A DNA stretch of 29,444 bases from IMG/VR virus record IMGVR_UViG_2563366842_000005. One strand, written 5' to 3'. Shown here piece by piece: positions 4,731 through 20,107 of this stretch. Source of the DNA: a virus. Its lineage: Duplodnaviria; Heunggongvirae; Uroviricota; Caudoviricetes. The position numbers were made by a program, and so were the translations under genes. Positions within the stretch are counted from its first letter, which is position 1. Each line of letters starts with the position of its first letter. The notes beneath the pieces were generated by a model. It did no database searches and had not been told where the DNA came from. It was given only the letters and a program-made list of their open reading frames with translations.

Positions 4731-4863
4731 TTTTTGGGACTCCTGGCTGATTAAGTATGTCGATAAGGCGTTTCCATCCGTCACGTAATTTACGGGTGAT
4801 TCGTTCAAGTAAAGATTCGGAAGGGCAGCCAGCAACAGGCCACCCTGCAATGGCATATTGCAT
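4699..4863 (-). CDS. cIII: CIII, FtsH/HflB protease inhibitor
   Basis: Not in the ORF track (<60 aa). Minus-strand ATG at 4861-4863 translates to [54 protein letters not shown], matching lambda CIII; overlaps kil in another frame as in lambda. Confidence 0.85.
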   Translation of the reverse strand: MQYAIAGWPVAGCPSESLLERITRKLRDGWKRLIDILNQPGVPKNGSNTYGYPD

Positions 4864-4935
4864 GGTGTGCTCCTTATTTATACATAACGAAAAACGCCTC
4901 GAGTGAAGCGTTATTGGTATGCGGTAACGCCGCGC

Positions 4936-5304
4936 TCAGGCGGCTTTGATAGTCATATCATCTGAATCAAATATTCCTGATGTATCGATATCGGTAATTC
5001 TTATTCCTTCGCTACCATCCATTGGAGGCCATCCTTCCTGACCATTTCCATCATTCCAGTCGAACTCACACACAACACCATATGCATTTAAGTCGCTTGA
5101 AATTGCTATAAGCAGAGCATGTTGCGCCAGCATGATTAATACAGCATTTAATACAGAGCCGTGTTTATTGAGTCGGTATTCAGAGTCTGACCAGAAATTA
5201 TTAATCTGGTGAAGTTTTTCCTCTGTCATTACGTCATGGTCGATTTCAATTTCTATTGATGCTTTCCAGTCGTAATCAATGATGTATTTTTTGATGTTTG
5301 ACAT
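4936..5304 (-). CDS. ea10: Ea10-like early protein
   Basis: 122-aa acidic protein in the lambda ea10 position between cIII and sieB; sequence recognised from memory as lambda Ea10. Confidence 0.7.
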   Translation of the reverse strand: MSNIKKYIIDYDWKASIEIEIDHDVMTEEKLHQINNFWSDSEYRLNKHGSVLNAVLIMLAQHALLIAISSDLNAYGVVCEFDWNDGNGQEGWPPMDGSEGIRITDIDTSGIFDSDDMTIKAA

Positions 5305-5322
5305 CTATTCATATCCTCACAG

Positions 5323-5350
5323 ATAAAAAATCGCCCTCACATTGGAGGGC
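5323..5350 (-). terminator. tL-like rho-independent terminator in the leftward early operon
   Basis: Plus strand aaaaaatcGCCCTCacattgGAGGGC; on the minus strand a 6-bp stem is followed by a 6-T run, between sieB and ea10. Confidence 0.5.
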
Positions 5351-5564
5351 AAAGAAGATTTCCAATAATCAGAACAAGTCGGCTCCTGTTTAGTTACGAG
5401 CGACATTGCTCAGTGTATTCACTCGTTGGAATGAATACACAGTGCAGTGTTTATTAGTATGCCTGTCTTTTAACCACATCAGGCTCGGTGGTTCTCGTGT
5501 ACCCCTACAGCGAGAAATCGGATAAACTCTATTCACCCCTACAGAGAGCAAAAGAGAAACGCCG

Positions 5565-6146
5565 ATGAACAACTCATGGTGGCAGGAACTAATGCATTTT
5601 TTCCTGCAAGGAATGACACTTAAACAGTTGATTCATATGCTAATCATCCTGATCATATTGATTATTGTTATGCCTGTAAGCGTAAAAGAATGGATAAACC
5701 TGCATAATCCAGAAATCCTTCCTCATTACTGGATGTATTACATCCTGTTGTTTTGCGTTAGCTATGTGCTTAACGGCGTTGTTAATTCCGCTTATCACGC
5801 TGTGACTGTAAGAATTGAGATATTCGCTGCTCAGAAGCGCAAATCTAAAGAAGAGAAATACGTGCAAGATTTGTTTGATTCGTTAACTCTTGGAGAAAGA
5901 GCGTATTTGGCATTCGCTGTAGCCGCTAATAACCAGCTAAAGACAGAAAAGGGAAGCCCTGAAGCAATCTCATTGCTCGAAAAAGGGCTTCTTATTCGGG
6001 TACCTTCTGCTACTGGATATCCTGAAATCGACCGTTTTGTTATCCCGGAACGCTATAGAAATGAGTGCTACATTAGGTTTGCTGGGAAGAAAGACAGTCT
6101 TATGGATGAACTTATCGCTCAGGATAAGCATGGCAAAAACAAGTAA
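5565..6146 (+). CDS. sieB: Superinfection exclusion protein B
   Basis: 193-aa ORF on the strand opposite the pL operon, between ea10 and N as in lambda; hydrophobic segments (LIHMLIILIILIIVMPV, YWMYYILLFCVSYVLNGVV); recognised as lambda SieB. Confidence 0.8.
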   Translation: MNNSWWQELMHFFLQGMTLKQLIHMLIILIILIIVMPVSVKEWINLHNPEILPHYWMYYILLFCVSYVLNGVVNSAYHAVTVRIEIFAAQKRKSKEEKYVQDLFDSLTLGERAYLAFAVAANNQLKTEKGSPEAISLLEKGLLIRVPSATGYPEIDRFVIPERYRNECYIRFAGKKDSLMDELIAQDKHGKNK

Positions 6147-12551: not shown

Positions 12552-12992
12552 ATGAAAAAACTAACCTTTGAAATTCGATCTCCAGCACATCAGCAAAACG
12601 CTATTCACGCAGTACAGCAAATCCTTCCAGACCCAACCAAACCAATCGTAGTAACCATTCAGGAACGCAACCGCAGCTTAGACCAAAACAGGAAGCTATG
12701 GGCCTGCTTAGGTGACGTCTCTCGTCAGGTTGAATGGCATGGTCGCTGGCTGGATGCAGAAAGCTGGAAGTGTGTGTTTACCGCAGCATTAAAGCAGCAG
12801 GATGTTGTTCCTAACCTTGCCGGGAATGGCTTTGTGGTAATAGGCCAGTCAACCAGCAGGATGCGTGTAGGCGAATTTGCGGAGCTATTAGAGCTTATAC
12901 AGGCATTCGGTACAGAGCGTGGCGTTAAGTGGTCAGACGAAGCGAGACTGGCTCTGGAGTGGAAAGCGAGATGGGGAGATCGGGCTGCATGA
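12552..12992 (+). CDS. ninB: NinB (Orf recombination mediator family)
   Basis: 146 aa from ATG 12552 (MKKLTFEIRSPAHQQNAIHAVQQILPDPTKP...), matches lambda NinB; the track ORF starts at an upstream TTG. Confidence 0.85.
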   Translation: MKKLTFEIRSPAHQQNAIHAVQQILPDPTKPIVVTIQERNRSLDQNRKLWACLGDVSRQVEWHGRWLDAESWKCVFTAALKQQDVVPNLAGNGFVVIGQSTSRMRVGEFAELLELIQAFGTERGVKWSDEARLALEWKARWGDRAA

Positions 12993-13516
12993 CTATCAAA
13001 TCAAATACGCCAGCACACGACAAGGACTGCTGGCAAACGCCGCTTTGGCTTTTTGATGCACTGGATATTGAGTTTGGATTCTGGCTGGATTCGGCAGCGA
13101 GCGACAAAAATGCTCTGTGTGCTCACTGGCTAACTGAGGCCGACGACGCGCTCAATTCTGAGTGGGTAAGCCACGGTGCAATCTGGAATAACCCACCGTA
13201 CAGCAATATCAGGCCGTGGGTGGAAAAAGCCGCTGAGCAGTGCATACAACAGCGACAGACGGTAGTTATGCTTGTGCCAGAGGATATGTCAGTCGGATGG
13301 TTCAGCAAGGCTCTGGAGAGTGTCGACGAAGTTCGCATTATCACTGATGGACGGATTAATTTTATCGAACCATCGACAGGGCTGGAGAAGAAGGGAAACA
13401 GCAAAGGCTCCATGCTGCTGATTTGGCGACCGTTCATCAGTCCTCGACGGATGTTTACTACCGTATCCAAAGCGGCATTGATGGCGATCGGGCAGGGCGT
13501 CAGGAGGGCGGCATGA
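12989..13516 (+). CDS. Phage DNA N6-adenine methyltransferase (Dam-like)
   Basis: ATG at 12989 overlaps the ninB stop (ATGA). Contains the catalytic N6-MTase motif NPPY (IWNNPPYSN). An alternative upstream ATG at 12971 is possible. Confidence 0.75.
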
Positions 13517-14033: not shown

Positions 14034-14220
14034 CCCATCTCAATCCCTTCAATACCTGAAAGGAAGCATAGAGCGGGCTTCAATGTGCACAGAGTGGATT
14101 CTATCTAGGTTTAGCGCATACAGAAGATTGCCGGTAAAGGGCATGCCAAGCAAGTCGATGCTGCATATGCAAAAGAATGCGCGCGGGAAGGTATGGCGAG
14201 AACGCAGGTTATCTGGCTGA
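14026..14220 (+). CDS. ninF: NinF-like small protein
   Basis: 64-aa ORF; the first 24 residues ([24 protein letters not shown]) resemble lambda NinF as recalled, the remainder diverges; may be a variant or a frameshifted remnant. Confidence 0.4.
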
Positions 14221-14239
14221 AAGAGGGGGTAATTAAGGC

Positions 14240-14602
14240 GTGAATACTTACCACATCACACTACCCTGGCCTCCGAGCAATAATCGCTATTATCGCCATA
14301 ATCGCGGGCGCACGCACGTCAGCGCAGAGGGGCAGGCATACCGCGATAACGTCGCCCGAATCATTAAAAACGCAATGCTGGATATCGGCCTGGCGATGCC
14401 TGTGAAAATCCGCATTGAGTGCCACATGCCGGATCGCCGTCGCCGTGACCTGGATAATCTGCAAAAAGCCGCTTTTGACGCACTCACCAAAGCAGGTTTC
14501 TGGCTGGATGATGCTCAGGTCGTTGATTACCGCGTTGTGAAGATGCCTGTTACCAAAGGTGGGAGGCTGGAATTGACCATCACCGAAATGGGGAATGAAT
14601 GA
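14240..14602 (+). CDS. rusA: RusA Holliday-junction resolvase
   Basis: 120 aa from GTG 14240 ([42 protein letters not shown]...), matches E. coli DLP12 RusA. Confidence 0.9.
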
Positions 14603-14739
14603 TGTTTGAGTTTTATATGGCAGAACGTCTTCGCCACCGCTGGGTGCGTCTGCGCTTATATCGTTTCCCCGGTTCTGTTTTGACCGATTACCGAATACTG
14701 AAGAATTACGCCAAAACACTGACAGGAGCAGGAGTATGA
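14599..14739 (+). CDS. ylcG: YlcG-like small protein
   Basis: Not in the track (<60 aa). ATG at 14599 overlaps the rusA stop; 46 aa [46 protein letters not shown], recalled as DLP12 YlcG between rusA and Q. Confidence 0.55.
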
Positions 14740-14824
14740 AGTCAGAGATAACAATCAACTAATACTGTTTTGCTGATTTTTGCTTGTAATTGGCGTTCTG
14801 GTCTGATTTTTGTGGAGTAAGTTG

Positions 14825-15202
14825 ATGCGTGATATTCAGATGGTTCTTGAGCGTTGGGGAGCGTGGGCGGCTAATAATCATGAAGATGTGACCTGGTCGT
14901 CCATTGCCGCCGGTTTTAAGGGATTAATTCCTTCAAAAGTAAAATCTCGCCCGCAATGTTGTGACGATGACGCGATGATCATTTGCGGGTGCATGGCCCG
15001 TCTGAAAAATAACAACAGCGATTTGCATGATTTGTTAGTGGACTATTATGTCGGCGGCATGACTTTTATGGCGCTTGCGCGTAAGCATGGTAGATCTGAT
15101 TGTTGGATTGGCAGGATGCTCCAAAAAGCTGAGGGCGTAGTGGAGGGCATGCTGATGGTGTTGGATCTCAGATTGGAGATGGATGCTGATTGTTTGAGAT
15201 AA
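14825..15202 (+). CDS. Q: Late-gene antiterminator Q (DLP12 QuuD / phage 82-type)
   Basis: 125 aa from ATG 14825 ([24 protein letters not shown]...), immediately upstream of a pR'/tR'-like region and the lysis genes; the track begins at an upstream TTG. Confidence 0.8.
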
Positions 15203-15301
15203 TTAAAGGAAAAGTTGCTGTCTGGTTATCATTAGACTAATGTTTCAAATGTTAGAATCGCAACGTAGTTATGATCATATAACAGCTTGTTCCCTGATTT
15301 A

Positions 15302-15330
15302 GCCAGCCTCCCCAAAGGCTGGTTTTTTTT
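15302..15330 (+). terminator. tR'-like rho-independent terminator downstream of Q
   Basis: GCCAGCCtccccaaaGGCTGG followed by eight T. A TAGAAT hexamer at 15254-15259 would give a roughly 65-nt pR' transcript ending here. Confidence 0.6.
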
Positions 15331-15358
15331 CTAATAAGTATCAATCCGGTTAGGTATT

Positions 15359-15883
15359 TTATTGTTTGACCCATAATAGTTCATTGACATTGAATCCCAA
15401 TTTTTGAGCAGTACGCACATAGTCTGCTTTTACATTATCTGGAATAGTTGGAGTCCGTGCCAGAATCCATAGGTATTCTCTGTTCGGACCACTGACAAGA
15501 GCATACTTATACTCATCATCCAGTTTGATTACATTATAGCCACCATAGAAGGGGCCAAAAAACGAAACCTTCAACGCTGCAGTTGTATTATCTCCTGTAA
15601 AGTATGCTTTACCTTCGCTCTCGCTCCATTTGTTTTTCGTTGGGTCATATCCACGATTAAGTACACTAATCCCTCCGTCGTTCCGTTTCCCATAAGTGGC
15701 GCTGACCTGTTCCAGACCACGTTCAAATCGGTTCTCAAGCCGAGCTATTTCATACCATTTTCCGAGGTAGCGGTTGGTGTCAAAATTTGTAATCGGCTGC
15801 ACACCTTTAGGTGGTGTCGGGGCCTTACATGCTATCAGAGTGAAAGAGAGTGCAATGCCAGTCAACACAGGCCATAACTTCAT
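15359..15883 (-). CDS. blc: Blc-like bacterial lipocalin, outer-membrane lipoprotein
   Basis: 174 aa with lipoprotein signal and lipobox (MKLWPVLTGIALSFTLIAC) and the lipocalin motif NFDTNRYLGKWYEIARLENRFERG; roughly two-thirds identical to E. coli Blc by eye. Opposite strand to the late operon. Confidence 0.85.
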   Translation of the reverse strand: MKLWPVLTGIALSFTLIACKAPTPPKGVQPITNFDTNRYLGKWYEIARLENRFERGLEQVSATYGKRNDGGISVLNRGYDPTKNKWSESEGKAYFTGDNTTAALKVSFFGPFYGGYNVIKLDDEYKYALVSGPNREYLWILARTPTIPDNVKADYVRTAQKLGFNVNELLWVKQ

Positions 15884-16075
15884 AATATATCCTGTACTTT
15901 TGATAGTTGAGAGTAAGTATTAAAGATAGATGATTACTACCGATCACCTAAAGAACTTTCCTACTATATTAGGAATAGTCCATAACAAAAAAATTGTCAG
16001 TGATGACGGCAGAAAGGCAGTTTAGGTCGTGTACTACACTGTTAACCTGTTAATGAATTAGTCAAGGGGTAGGCA

Positions 16076-17035
16076 ATGATAAAAAAACCTGTCGTTGGGA
16101 TCAGTGGTTGTTTGGCCGGTTCTTCTGTCCGTTTTGATGGTGGTCACAAAAGAGCTAGCTTTTTAATGGACAAATTACTGGAATGGGTAACATTCAAACC
16201 AGTATGTCCGGAAATGGCTATAGGGCTTCCAGTTCCGCGTCCTGCTCTACGTCTTGTTCGCTCGGCGCAAGGAAATATACGGATGTGTTTCAGCCACGAC
16301 CAGAATGAGGATGTTACAGAGAAAATGACAGAGTTTAGTCGTTCTTATCTTGACAAATTAAAGGATGTATCGGGATTTGTGGTTTGTGCAAAATCTCCTA
16401 GCTGTGGTATGGAACGCGTGCGTGTATATGATGAAAATGGTAATCGTGGTCGTAAAGATGGAGTGGGACTATTTACGAGCACGTTGATGGAAAGGTTTTC
16501 CTGGCTACCGGTTGAAGAGGATGGGCGACTACATGATCCAGTGCTTCGTGAAAACTTTGTTGAAAGAGTATTTGCTTTACATGAGCTCAATCATCTTTAT
16601 AAAGCGAAATTATCAAGAAGGGAATTATTAGCTTTTCATAGCCGTTATAAGCTTCAGTTGTTGGCGCATAGCCAGGCCGGTTATAAAGAGATGGGGCCAT
16701 TTGTGGCTGCAATACATGAGTGGGCAGACCTTGAATCATACTTTGAGGTGTATCGTGAGAAGCTGATGGCGATTCTCAGAAAACCTGCATCACGTAAAAA
16801 TCACACGAATGTGCTGATGCATATACAGGGATATTTTAGTAACTGCTTAAATACACGTCAGCGTAAAGAGTTGAGCGATGTTATACTTAACTATCGAGCT
16901 GGCACGCTACCTCTTCTTGCGCCATTAACTTTGCTGAAGCATTACTTGGCAGAGTATCCTGATGATTATTTGCTTATACAGAATTACTTCCACCCCTATC
17001 CTGATGAACTGGCTCTAAGACTCTTGGTGAACTAG
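16076..17035 (+). CDS. Two-domain protein: Cys-containing DUF523 (TudS/YbbK-like) N-terminal domain fused to a DUF1722 (YbgA-like) C-terminal domain
   Basis: 319 aa, ATG 16076 with AAGGGG SD. N-terminal region carries conserved-looking cysteines (GISGCLAG, VCPEMAIG, CAKSPSCGMERV) as in DUF523 Fe-S proteins; C-terminal half is helical and basic. Domain assignment is from memory and needs an HMM search. Confidence 0.55.
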   Translation: MIKKPVVGISGCLAGSSVRFDGGHKRASFLMDKLLEWVTFKPVCPEMAIGLPVPRPALRLVRSAQGNIRMCFSHDQNEDVTEKMTEFSRSYLDKLKDVSGFVVCAKSPSCGMERVRVYDENGNRGRKDGVGLFTSTLMERFSWLPVEEDGRLHDPVLRENFVERVFALHELNHLYKAKLSRRELLAFHSRYKLQLLAHSQAGYKEMGPFVAAIHEWADLESYFEVYREKLMAILRKPASRKNHTNVLMHIQGYFSNCLNTRQRKELSDVILNYRAGTLPLLAPLTLLKHYLAEYPDDYLLIQNYFHPYPDELALRLLVN

Positions 17036-17353
17036 GCGTTTGGAATGCACCAACAAGATGATTTTCTCCTTAGAGAATGTTTACAATCGTAAAAACTTCA
17101 CTATGATATCTATAGTTGTACAGTTTGTAAAAAAATTCGGTTCATGCTTAAGGTAATGTTAATATGTTAATTAATGATTAATAATCAAGCAAGCCAAAAA
17201 TAGTTCTGTTTAATCTAGTATTACATAAATATTTTAAAGAAAATATCAAAGTTCATGATGATATAATGAGATTTTTCTCATTGAAAATATGGCAATTTTA
17301 ATATTTCCACCTATACTTACTTAACTCAAATCTAATTATGTCAGGTGGATGGT

Positions 17354-18085
17354 ATGCCATGCATATGTTCTATCATTTTGGTTTTGAACTCGTTTGATAT
17401 CCGGCTTGGTAAAGAAAAAATCTCTCTAAAAAAAGGAAGTGTTGTTGCTATAGAATACAATTTAAAAGTTTTCTTTTCTTCAAATAAAGATAATATAATG
17501 ATCGTGGATATTGAAGAGAAAACAGTTAATGACTTCTTTAAAAACAATACACTCTCACCTTTTTCTGTAAGAAGATTTTATTCAGCATACTTGATAGTAA
17601 ACTGTACAGACTATTCATTGTTAAAGAACTTGATAGGTTGCTTGAATTGTGATGGTGAAACTACGGCTGTAGTTAAAAATTCAATATTATTTGCATGTCT
17701 TGCTATTTTATCCTCGGAAAAAATGTTTCAGAGTTTTTTGTTTGGGTGTCTTAATAGTTTAGGAAGCAAAGTTAAGGCTATTATTCACTCGGACATATCT
17801 GCAGCATGGAGACTTTGTGATATTTCTTCAAGACTATGTCTGAGTGAAAGTTTGTTAAAAAGAAAACTAAAACACGAAGGCTTATCATTTAGCAAATTAA
17901 TTCTTGAAGAACGAATGGTGATGGCTGAAAGGTTATTAAGCTACAATTTCTATCCTGTTGGGAAAGTTGCTAAAATATGTGGTTATGAAAGCGCGTCATA
18001 TTTTATAAGTGTTTTCAGAAGATATTTTGGTGTTCCCCCCCATGAATATTCATCAAGATTTTTTTTAGAAAAAGGCAAGATGTAA
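17354..18085 (+). CDS. AraC-family transcriptional regulator (AppY/EnvY/Rns-like)
   Basis: C-terminal AraC-type HTH region (KVAKICGYESASYFISVFRRYFGVPPHEY). Very AT-rich gene with an AT-rich upstream region. Start ambiguous: ATG 17354 after an AGGTGGA SD, or GTG 17345. Confidence 0.75.
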   Translation: MPCICSIILVLNSFDIRLGKEKISLKKGSVVAIEYNLKVFFSSNKDNIMIVDIEEKTVNDFFKNNTLSPFSVRRFYSAYLIVNCTDYSLLKNLIGCLNCDGETTAVVKNSILFACLAILSSEKMFQSFLFGCLNSLGSKVKAIIHSDISAAWRLCDISSRLCLSESLLKRKLKHEGLSFSKLILEERMVMAERLLSYNFYPVGKVAKICGYESASYFISVFRRYFGVPPHEYSSRFFLEKGKM

Positions 18086-18147
18086 CGTGATGCGTTTTGA
18101 TGATTTTGTAATTTTCATATTTGATGATTATATGATGCTTTCAGCTA

Positions 18148-18177
18148 CGCCAGAATAATCGCTGGCGTTTTTCTTTT
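18148..18177 (+). terminator. Rho-independent terminator after the AraC-family gene
   Basis: CGCCAGaataatcgCTGGCG followed by TTTTTCTTTT, between the regulator gene and the holin. Confidence 0.5.
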
Positions 18178-18252
18178 CTAATGTAACTTCTGTATCTTTC
18201 CCTCTTTCATTCCAAACCGTGTACACCATCCGTTATTCGCGGAGGTGAGGCT

Positions 18253-18468
18253 ATGAAATCCATGGACAAGTTAACAACGGGCATTGCCTACGGCACCTCT
18301 GCAGGCAGTGCTGGCTACTGGTTTTTACAGTGGCTTGATCAGGTCAGTCCGTCACAGTGGGCGGCGATTGGAGTGCTTGGAAGCCTTGTGTTGGGTTTTC
18401 TCACTTATCTGACAAACCTTTATTTCAAGATTAAAGAAGATAAGCGTAAGGCTGCGAGAGGTGAATAA
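18253..18468 (+). CDS. S: Class II holin (phage 21 S-type pinholin; DLP12 EssD-like)
   Basis: 71 aa [31 protein letters not shown]... with dual-start motif (MKSM) and two TM segments; first gene of the lysis cassette. Confidence 0.85.
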
Positions 18469-18965
18469 TGTCGCCATCATTACGCAAGGCTGTAGCAGCT
18501 GCTATTGGTGGTGGGGCTGTTGCCATAGCGTCTGTGCTCATCACTGGTCCGAGTGGTGACGATGGTCTGGAAGGTGTCAGCTACATACCATATAAAGATA
18601 TTGTTGGTGTATGGACTGTATGTCACGGGCATACAGGAAAAGACATCATGCTCGGTAAAACGTATACCAAAGCAGAATGCAAAGCACTCTTGAATAAAGA
18701 CCTTGCCACTGTCGCCAGACAAATTAACCCGTACATCAAAGTCGATATACCGGAAACAACGCGCGGCGCTCTTTACTCATTCGTTTACAACGTGGGTGCT
18801 GGCAATTTCAGAACATCGACGCTTCTTCGCAAAATAAACCAGGGCGATATCAAAGGCGCATGTGATCAGTTACGTCGCTGGACATATGCTGGCGGTAAGC
18901 AATGGAAAGGTCTCATGACTCGTCGTGAGATTGAGCGTGAAATCTGTTTGTGGGGTCAGCAATGA
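18468..18965 (+). CDS. R: SAR endolysin (T4-lysozyme-family muramidase with N-terminal signal-anchor-release domain)
   Basis: 165 aa; Gly/Ala-rich weakly hydrophobic N terminus ([20 protein letters not shown]) followed by lysozyme catalytic region ([22 protein letters not shown]); start overlaps the holin stop. Confidence 0.9.
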
Positions 18966-19423
18966 ACAGAGTAACCGCGATTATCTCCGCTCTGGTTATC
19001 TGCATCATCGTCTGCCTGTCATGGGCTGTTAATCATTACCGTGATAACGCCATTACCTACAAAGCCCAGCGCGACAAAAATGCCAGAGAACTGAAGCTGG
19101 CGAACGCGGCAATTACTGACATGCAGATGCGTCAGCGTGATGTTGCTGCGCTCGATGCAAAATACACGAAGGAGTTAGCTGATGCGAAAGCTGAAAATGA
19201 TGCTCTGCGTGATGATGTTGCCGCTGGTCGTCGTCGGTTGCACATCAAAGCAGTCTGTCAGTCAGTGCGTGAAGCCACCACCGCCTCCGGCGTGGATAAT
19301 GCAGCCTCCCCCCGACTGGCAGACACCGCTGAACGGGATTATTTCACCCTCAGAGAGAGGCTGATCACGATGCAAAAACAACTGGAAGGAACCCAGAAGT
19401 ATATTAATGAGCAGTGCAGATAG
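18962..19423 (+). CDS. Rz: Rz inner-membrane spanin (i-spanin)
   Basis: 153 aa from ATG 18962 with N-terminal TM and coiled-coil-like body; overlaps the endolysin stop; contains the embedded Rz1 gene. Confidence 0.85.
19182..19364 (+). CDS. Rz1: Rz1 outer-membrane lipoprotein spanin (o-spanin), embedded in Rz in the +1 frame
   Basis: 60 aa [24 protein letters not shown]... with lipobox and a proline-rich stretch ([15 protein letters not shown]); AAGGAG SD 7 nt upstream. Confidence 0.8.
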
Positions 19424-19454
19424 AGCTGCCCATATCGATGGGCAACTCATGCAA

Positions 19455-19748
19455 TTATTGTGAGCAATAGACACGCGCTTCCAGCGGAGTATAAATGCCT
19501 AAAGTAATAAAACCGAGCAATCCATTTACGAATGTTTGCTGGGTTTCTGTTTTAACAACATTTTCTGCGCCGCCACAAATTTTGGCTGCATCAACAGTTT
19601 TCTCCTGTCCAATTCCCGAAACGAAGAAGTGATGGGTGATGGTTTCCTTTGGTGTTACTGCTGTCGGTTTGTTTCCAACAGTAAACGTCTGTTGAGCACA
19701 TCCTGTAATAAGCATTGCCAGAGCGGCAGAAAACAACATTTTTTTCAT
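19455..19748 (-). CDS. bor: Bor lipoprotein (serum-resistance, Iss family)
   Basis: 97 aa from ATG 19748 (MKKMLFSAALAMLITGCAQQTFTV...); lipobox ITGC; position and orientation as lambda bor. Confidence 0.85.
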   Translation of the reverse strand: MKKMLFSAALAMLITGCAQQTFTVGNKPTAVTPKETITHHFFVSGIGQEKTVDAAKICGGAENVVKTETQQTFVNGLLGFITLGIYTPLEARVYCSQ

Positions 19749-20107
19749 CTTATTATCCTGCATTGTTAAAAACGGCAGAATCCTATGTGACAACAATTAA
19801 ACGATAGTTAAATGGATTGATGAAAATTAAAACTATATAGGTGGATGCTCAGCCTATTGGAGGAGGGGGGCACTCAGAATCCTGTGGAATGAAATAAACC
19901 GCTCTTTCTGTCCATTACCCTTTTAGCTGCGCTGTATCGTCGCCGTATTCCCGCATTAACCATGACCGTAGCCCGACGGGGAATTCCTTCTGCGTGAGTG
20001 TGCGGGAATAATCAAAAACGATGCACACCGGGTTTTACTGTGCTGACAGACGCAGGGTTACCCTCATAGTCGCTTTTCCGGTGCGATGGTGGAAGAAACC
20101 GGGATGT

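Follow-up and report, generated by a model that had tools for sequence, protein, structure and literature searches.

A three-gene cargo block between Q and the holin gene

The 29,444-nucleotide stretch of viral DNA analysed here (IMG/VR record IMGVR_UViG_2563366842_000005, Caudoviricetes; hereafter the window, whose numbering is used throughout) belongs to a lambda-like Escherichia coli prophage integrated next to icd, and matches, at ~100% identity, a group of temperate phages from the infant gut that comprises 1H12, Lambda_2E9, ev087 and their relatives (genus Jouyvirus). Our subject is the block of genes between its late-gene antiterminator gene Q and its holin gene S, a junction that is the classic moron site of lambdoid phages, occupied by stx in Stx phages and by nmpC in DLP12. 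Reading away from Q, a leader with an intrinsic terminator is followed by a lipocalin gene (blc) on the opposite strand, a gene for a two-domain protein that we identify below as RudS, a gene for an AraC-family regulator and a second terminator (Table 1). The 1H12-group phages carry the identical block, likewise placed from Q to the holin. With a probability of roughly 0.72, we read this cassette as a composite lysogenic-conversion cargo, blc-rudS joined to an araC gene of the PatE/Psr type, in a prophage of the 1H12/Lambda_2E9 type.

Table 1. Coordinates of the cassette and of the genes that anchor it
Feature	Position	Strand	Basis
Q (QuuD type), late-gene antiterminator, left anchor	14810..15202	+	PF06530, E 2.5e-51
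Leader from Q to the cargo, with intrinsic terminator	15203..15332	+	stem 15301-15324, T8 to ~15332
blc-like outer-membrane lipocalin lipoprotein, 174 aa	15359..15883	-	PF08212, E 2.2e-43
Divergent blc-rudS spacer, 192 bp	15884..16075	.	GC 0.349
rudS, TudS-type [4Fe-4S] desulfidase domain + DUF1722, 319 aa	16076..17035	+	PF04463, PF08349
rudS-araC spacer, 318 bp, very AT-rich	17036..17353	.	GC 0.267
araC-family regulator, PatE/Psr/YdeO/GadX group, 243 aa	17354..18085	+	PF12833, E 2.9e-15; PF00165, E 1.7e-12
Terminator closing the cargo block	18147..18177 (hairpin 18147-18168 + T-run)	+	terminator scan
Holin, P21-type, right anchor	18253..18468	+	PF04971, E 3e-35
Lysozyme	18468..18965	+	PF00959, E 1.3e-45

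Comparison with DLP12 of strain K-12 sets the ends of the insert at 15185 and 18241, a length of 3.06 kb. The flanks (14200-15184 and 18242-19802) share 92-94% DNA identity with DLP12, in which nmpC::IS5 stands in place of the cassette; up to 15184 the identity to the rusA-ylcG-quuD region is 93.8%, and from 18242 onwards the identity to essD-rrrD-rzpD-borD is 92%. In prophage Sp4 of strain Sakai, the Q gene is 81% identical and other cargo follows it. For the Q gene of the window, the start annotated in relatives corresponds to 14825, and among solved structures its product distantly resembles Q21 (6P18, E 2e-8). The G+C fraction (GC) of the cassette is 0.374, against 0.488 for the window, with values of 0.313 in araC and 0.43-0.44 in blc and rudS. 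Replaced by other DNA in close relatives and deviant in base composition, the block is a moron, that is, a piece of cargo, at the Q-to-holin junction of a lambdoid prophage. This is what the original prediction for this DNA had proposed, and the DLP12 comparison upholds it; every feature named there is found, a few bases away at most, including the AT-rich composition and the block's own terminator, a hairpin with a T-run. Hidden Markov model searches likewise bear out the three family assignments (PF08212; PF04463 with PF08349; PF12833), and the strength of these matches on intact open reading frames (ORFs) excludes chance ORFs.

The middle gene encodes the tRNA 4-thiouridine eraser RudS_vir

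The gene in the middle of the cassette had been described as one of unknown function, a description that is now outdated, and its correction to RudS_vir is our main result for annotation. The predicted protein is identical over 319/319 residues to gp66 of phage 1H12 (H3V29_gp66), the gene that was synthesised and studied as RudS_vir by Jamontas et al. (2024, Nucleic Acids Res, PMC11417400). Every RudS variant tested in that work reduced tRNA 4-thiouridine (s4U) when expressed in E. coli (PMC11417400). The middle gene is thus a tRNA 4-thiouridine eraser, with an activity that we take from the literature on the identical protein.

The domain structure is that of the RudS family. A TudS-type domain (PF04463, 2-thiouracil desulfurase, formerly DUF523; E 3.6e-40) is fused in one polypeptide to a C-terminal DUF1722 domain (PF08349, E 1.3e-40, residues 192-309), and the YbgA model PRK10167 matches residues 160-315. 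The three cluster cysteines Cys12, Cys44 and Cys110, listed for RudS_vir in Table 1 of PMC11417400, align with Cys10, Cys43 and Cys104 of TudS (6Z92), as do Glu46 with Glu45 and Ser107/Ser109 with Ser101/Ser103. As reported for the identical protein, RudS uses its [4Fe-4S] cluster to turn s4U at tRNA position 8 back into uridine, and the cell thereby loses a near-UV-sensitive base whose cross-linking stalls aminoacylation and triggers a stringent growth delay. A second family member, RudS_KT, cut the growth delay that follows ultraviolet A (UVA) exposure from ~105 to ~60 min (PMC11417400). In the literature on RudS or DUF1722 together with prophages we found no description of the cassette.

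An outer-membrane lipocalin and a regulator of the PatE/Psr group

The lipocalin passes the cutoff of the NCBIfam Blc subfamily (PRK10477, NF007786; 315.5 bits, cutoff 267) and shares 64% identity over its mature part with the solved E. coli Blc 3MBT (E 2.6e-69). Its signal sequence, read by eye as MKLWPVLTGIALSFTLIAC followed by KAP, contains the lipobox L-I-A-C with Cys19, and Lys20 at position +2; a lipobox cysteine with a residue other than Asp at +2 is the outer-membrane sorting signal of a Blc lipoprotein. From the 64% identity we expect the protein to leave the cytoplasm, to receive its lipid at Cys19 and to end up in the outer membrane, where its ligands would be those of E. coli Blc, which binds lysophospholipids and fatty acids and is expressed in stationary phase (RpoS); for the phage gene, no sigma-S promoter was identified. 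The protein is closer to the rudS-linked Blc proteins of other Enterobacteriaceae (73-81% identity) than to E. coli's own Blc. The gene runs antisense to the late transcript. A blc gene has been listed as a moron in >50% of the infant-gut lambdas, the phages among which 1H12 is counted (Mathieu et al. 2020, PMC6969025).

The ORF of the regulator spans 17345-18085, and its true start is most likely the ATG at 17354, which aligns with Met1 of both homologues described next and agrees with the RefSeq and 1H12 annotation. The protein has the C-terminal double helix-turn-helix of AraC/XylS-type regulators, and its homology to the PatE/Psr group extends over the full length, the N-terminal domain included: 53% identity over 235 aa, without a gap, to ECs_0287 of Sakai Sp1, and 40% identity to full-length PsrA (ECs_1087). 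The DNA-binding half alone is 73% identical to ECs_0287, 57% to PsrA and 43% to GadX, whose DNA-binding domain (3MKL) is the best PDB match (E 5e-21); the best NCBIfam match is to YdeO, at 112.7 bits and below the cutoff of 348. ECs_0287 is the only AraC-type gene in the thrW prophage Sp1 of O157 Sakai, which corresponds to OI-8, the island encoding PatE, and it is probably PatE (Z0321) itself. PatE and PsrB activate gadE and hdeAB, and PsrA represses type III secretion (LEE, indirectly) via GadE (PMC10877973). By analogy with these relatives, at 53% and 40% identity, the regulator of the cassette may activate host acid-resistance promoters of the gadE/hdeAB type and counteract H-NS.

Distribution, alleles and selection in E. 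coli

The cassette is present in 1152-1154 of 5426 complete E. coli genomes (~21%), almost always as a single, chromosomal copy, and the statement that E. coli lacks RudS (PMC11417400) thus fails at the level of the species. Three alleles can be distinguished. Allele A, the type found in the window, occurs at >=99% identity in 110 genomes; allele B, ~89% identical to A, is the commonest, with roughly 570 genomes by subtraction; and allele C, which has a 237-aa araC product that is 76% identical, lies in a Qin-like backbone. All sampled loci have the order Q-blc-rudS-araC-essD, in DLP12-like as well as Qin-like backbones. An IMG/VR sample of 80 contigs, 76 of them with enough flank on both sides, gives the same picture, with the five genes Q-blc-rudS-araC-holin in order in 74 of the 76. 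The idea that the three genes travel together, raised as a check in the original prediction, is thus sustained within E. coli; it does not hold for them as one evolutionary unit, as the blc-rudS pair is chromosomal in other genera and PatE/Psr genes turn up in other phages, at different moron sites that lack blc-rudS.

The holin gene and Q (95-100% identical) co-vary with the cassette, and the linkage in E. coli is best read as the descent of one Q-cargo-lysis module rather than as repeated co-selection; cassette, Q allele and holin allele would then pass on as a single module of recombination. Calculated between alleles, the ratio of nonsynonymous to synonymous substitution rates (dN/dS) is highest in araC (0.22-0.27); blc and rudS have 0.07-0.19 and 0.10-0.21, and the anchor genes Q and S have 0.03-0.10. 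The three alleles differ by a dS of 0.17-0.57, and each carries blc, rudS and araC as uninterrupted ORFs. These ratios indicate purifying selection on all three cargo genes while phage-borne, somewhat weaker on araC.

Such values bear on a reading in which the three genes are neutral hitch-hikers, a chromosomal piece and an AT-rich regulator brought in by illegitimate recombination and retained only by the essential Q-lysis module. Common descent with nearly identical Q and holin alleles would explain the linkage; truncations and insertions of insertion sequences (IS) are frequent (BL21(DE3) and cases with IS1, IS2 and IS3), and, of the 76 IMG/VR contigs with an AraC match, 62 have araC intact, whereas in about one fifth (~18%) it is disrupted. 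Nonetheless, the ORFs stay intact over the whole divergence of the alleles, their dN/dS values lie close to those of Q and S, the identical RudS protein is enzymatically active, and the cassette persists in ~21% of complete genomes, all of which make neutral carriage very improbable next to a lysogenic-conversion cargo.

Several observations on individual copies belong here. In BL21(DE3) (NZ_CP053602.1, 1584487-1595505; locus positions 5156-6019) and in Rosetta2, a remnant of the cassette lies in a Qin-like prophage, with blc intact and rudS reduced to its first 49 codons, where it is cut by IS3; BL21(DE3) served as the RudS-free host in the RudS work (PMC11417400). In allele B, araC contains a run of eight T (codons ~38-41; locus L005, 6288-6312, and loci L080 and L081; corresponding to ~17468-17480 of the window). 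Three of the four genomes sampled have only T7, which shifts the reading frame, and ~10 of the 76 IMG/VR araC copies are split at this place, for which real slippage and homopolymer sequencing error are both possible explanations. The impression from those few genomes that the commonest allele has a frameshifted araC was overturned by the larger sample. In the allele of the window the T-run is interrupted (GTTTTCTTTTC). Lastly, contigs from metagenome-assembled genomes labelled 'Candidatus Nanosynbacter' (JARKOR01; loci L058 and L077) and 'uncultured Clostridiales' (L010) carry either this cassette (88-98% identity) or a Klebsiella-like rudS locus, and probably represent binning contamination.

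Chromosomal relatives and the origin of the cassette

Chromosomal RudS homologues with 68-76% identity are found at 56 enterobacterial species loci, and 19 of these 56 have a divergent upstream Blc homologue. In ten Kluyvera loci blc and rudS are directly adjacent, separated by 112-115 bp compared with 192 bp in the phage, and in eight loci they are kept apart by a gene for a regulator of the MerR family (242 aa), whose helical and C-terminal domains are those of MlrA; a further 11 rudS loci have the MlrA-like regulator without blc. There is no PatE-like AraC gene at any of the 56 chromosomal rudS loci, and a tblastn search of the spacer from blc to rudS in the phage found nothing left of the MlrA-like regulator. 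PatE-type genes, for their part, adjoin the tail-fibre/integrase region in ev099 and mEp332, and PsrA follows Q in Sp4, with other neighbours. Taken together, the cassette is most likely a composite in which blc-rudS was captured en bloc from a chromosome without its regulator, and araC looks like a separately acquired, low-GC addition.

A gene for a small lipoprotein (DUF3833) also precedes rudS in a second chromosomal setting, seen in Klebsiella (K. pneumoniae, locus L009) and Serratia (S. fonticola, locus L015, 255-5960). There rudS closes a cluster of genes for an amine oxidase, a DUF1365 protein, proteins resembling cyclopropane-fatty-acid (CFA) synthase and chalcone isomerase, and the DUF3833 lipoprotein.

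The chromosomal loci also speak to a role in anti-phage defence or superinfection exclusion, in which Blc would alter the outer membrane against adsorption, or RudS would alter tRNAs needed by incoming phages or nucleases. The moron sites of temperate phages often house defence genes, and Blc is an outer-membrane protein, as are other exclusion factors. However, none of the three proteins has a match in PADLOC-DB at E <= 0.01, PHROGs labels all three families 'unknown function', and the blc-rudS pair occurs in ordinary chromosomal contexts of other genera, so that we attach hardly any probability to a defence role.

Transcription signals

The 91-nt leader that holds the first terminator folds at -21.5 kcal/mol (z -3.3 against shuffled sequence) and is common to the three cassette alleles; the terminator is presumably the tR'-like stop of the short transcript from the late promoter. 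That promoter, pR', cannot be placed by homology, because the leader is not alignable with those of Sakai Sp4 and DLP12. Candidates are TGGAGA-18-GATAAT at 15174-15203 and TTGCTG (15215)-17-TAATGT (15243), the latter followed by a -10-like TAGAAT at 15253-15258. The hand-picked TTGCTG-17-TAATGT was rejected, as it has only 3/6 matches per hexamer and falls below the threshold of the promoter scan. The second terminator (-12.1 kcal/mol, z -2.7) ends 75 bp upstream of the holin start, and its hairpin is conserved in alleles A, B and C. An Rfam search of 14700-18400 at permissive E-values returned only a sub-threshold match on the tR'-like hairpin, and a search for tRNA genes returned none; there is thus no sign of a known small RNA or tRNA within the cassette.

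The divergent spacer between blc and rudS is presumed to hold the promoters of both genes; the scan picks out a single weak promoter-like match there, at 15907-15934 (+). Past the rudS stop codon, two overlapping promoter-like sites, at 17080-17107 (+) and 17131-17103 (-), have 10/12 matches each, which are consensus matches only; the minus-strand site would drive an antisense transcript into rudS. Over the cassette region as a whole, the sigma-70 scan finds promoter-like sites at chance level (12, against 11.0 +/- 3.3 in shuffled sequence), and promoters belonging to the three genes themselves are, because of this count, an assumption.

Role of the cassette in the lysogen and on induction

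We propose, from the architecture of the locus, that in the lysogen promoters within the two AT-rich spacers would serve the three genes, whose products would raise the stress tolerance of the host. The expected effects are a lower level of s4U in tRNA with less growth arrest under near-UV light, a further lipocalin in the outer membrane, and acid-resistance genes that are switched on. Upon induction, Q-modified polymerase starting just downstream of Q would have to pass both terminators and transcribe the cassette in full before it reached S, R, Rz and the head genes, so that rudS and araC would be co-transcribed with the late operon and blc would be read antisense. The amplification of the cargo by Q-dependent induction that was originally invoked can thus apply to rudS and araC, and not to blc.

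This arrangement also invites the opposite view, namely that the cassette, or at least rudS, serves the lytic cycle of the phage. RudS would strip s4U8 from host tRNAs in late growth, and the same sunlight that induces the prophage (ultraviolet B, via SOS) would then no longer stall the synthesis of late proteins through UVA-cross-linked tRNA and the stringent response. The orientation of rudS and araC, which point the same way as the late operon and precede all of the lysis and head genes, fits this view, as do the chance-level promoter count, the absence from the phage copy of the MlrA-like regulator found ahead of rudS on many chromosomes, and the shorter UVA growth delay conferred by RudS_KT; in addition, 1H12-type phages are viable and inducible (PMC6969025). 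At the same time, blc is antisense to the late transcript, and the cassette is dispensable for growth, as close functional backbones do without it (the DLP12-type flanks with nmpC). The PatE/Psr homologues act in lysogens, the erasure of s4U from tRNA made beforehand would have little time to pay when it comes late in a cycle of roughly 1 h, and the Kluyvera chromosomes likewise lack the regulator. On balance we consider a lytic function unlikely, even if it is the foremost competitor of a lysogenic-conversion role.

A more elaborate version can be formulated, in which the phage took a chromosomal locus for near-UV and membrane stress (blc-mlrA-like-rudS), lost the regulator and put rudS under Q-dependent late transcription, so that on induction by sunlight the erasure of s4U8 uncouples late protein synthesis from the arrest caused by tRNA cross-links and the stringent response. 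This scenario is more doubtful still; if true, it would constitute a phage-encoded tRNA 'de-modification' strategy in about a fifth of E. coli strains.

Lysogenic conversion by a composite cargo is thus the reading we favour, and a number of points weigh against it. As an enzyme, RudS_vir is soluble and well expressed, yet less active than other well-expressed RudS enzymes, and a UVA phenotype is reported only for RudS_KT (PMC11417400). With just 53% and 40% identity to its characterised relatives, the regulator may have other targets than they do, and the identification of ECs_0287 as PatE rests on its position in the thrW prophage (OI-8/Sp1) rather than on a PatE-labelled sequence, a protein-cluster look-up having returned no 'PatE' label. 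The promoter-like sites do not exceed chance, and araC is broken in a substantial minority of viral contigs. As for origin and cohesion, the best possible donors are only 81% (Blc) and 76% (RudS) identical, so that the capture is old or the donor unsampled, and single descent with the Q-S module can explain the linkage, which is therefore no proof of cooperation among the three genes.

Should lysogens express the cassette, three traits would come together in a large number of E. coli strains, commensal as well as clinical: less s4U in tRNA with a growth delay that is shorter under near-UV light, a second lipocalin in the outer membrane, and one more activator of the GAD/Hde acid-resistance regulon. 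These traits bear on how such strains survive in surface water and pass through the stomach.

Other features of the window

Outside the cassette, the only Rfam match at the gathering threshold in the whole window is the lambda cIII thermoregulator RNA in the early-left operon (4818-4876, -; RF01804, 88.5 bits, E 1.4e-20). A second moron, a gene for a Bor/Iss-type serum-survival lipoprotein (19455-19796, -), stands right after the lysis genes and is annotated as iss in an identical RefSeq prophage. The nin region carries a gene for an N6-adenine DNA methyltransferase with the NPPY motif (12929-13516, +), so annotated in 1H12 and RefSeq.

Comparison with known systems

Much of what is found at this locus is already known. 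The sequence is present in public phage genomes, blc has been recorded as a moron, the RudS protein and the family of the regulator have been characterised, and the junction is a textbook site; the cassette is real, but most likely an ordinary lysogenic-conversion cassette, and general knowledge of morons is unchanged. What is added here is the link between the formerly unknown gene and RudS_vir, the prevalence of ~21%, the probable composite origin, which includes a chromosomal blc-(mlrA-like)-rudS ancestor, and the estimates of selection.

The nearest counterpart is gp66 of 1H12, where not only the protein but also the neighbours (Q, blc, araC and holin) and their order are alike. The study of RudS_vir treated the enzyme in isolation, without its prophage context, and states that E. 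coli lacks RudS (PMC11417400). Salmonella ORF319 (STM1389, RudS_ST, with a MerR-family neighbour) is likewise a 319-aa two-domain enzyme with Cys12, Cys44 and Cys110 as here (PMC11417400). The chromosomal blc-(mlrA-like)-rudS loci of Kluyvera, Kosakonia, Buttiauxella, Enterobacter and Lelliottia resemble the first half of the cassette, and differ from it in a RudS identity of 68-76% and in the absence of araC, Q and holin.

The other two genes have known counterparts of their own. The chromosomal Blc of E. coli (1QWD, 2ACO, 3MBT) agrees with the phage protein in family, length and lipoprotein signal; its gene, however, adjoins ampC, whereas the phage copy is nearer to the rudS-linked Blc lineage of other genera. 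PatE (Z0321, OI-8), PsrA (Z1789/ECs1087) and PsrB (Z2104) of E. coli O157:H7 are, as is the regulator described here, prophage-borne, AT-rich, AraC-type genes whose products of ~240 aa are homologous over their full length, and PsrA also lies downstream of a Q gene, the 81% identical one of Sakai Sp4. They differ in their alleles, in their neighbours (a transposase remnant; a CAAX protease and tRNAs) and in their positions (the b-region in ev099 and mEp332).

As a piece of phage architecture, the cassette can be compared with nmpC of DLP12, which occupies the same junction between flanks that are 92-94% identical and which likewise places a gene for an outer-membrane protein, antisense to the late transcript, directly after Q. 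In DLP12 the cargo is a porin and in the Stx phages it is a toxin; here the same site holds a lipocalin, a tRNA eraser and a regulator.

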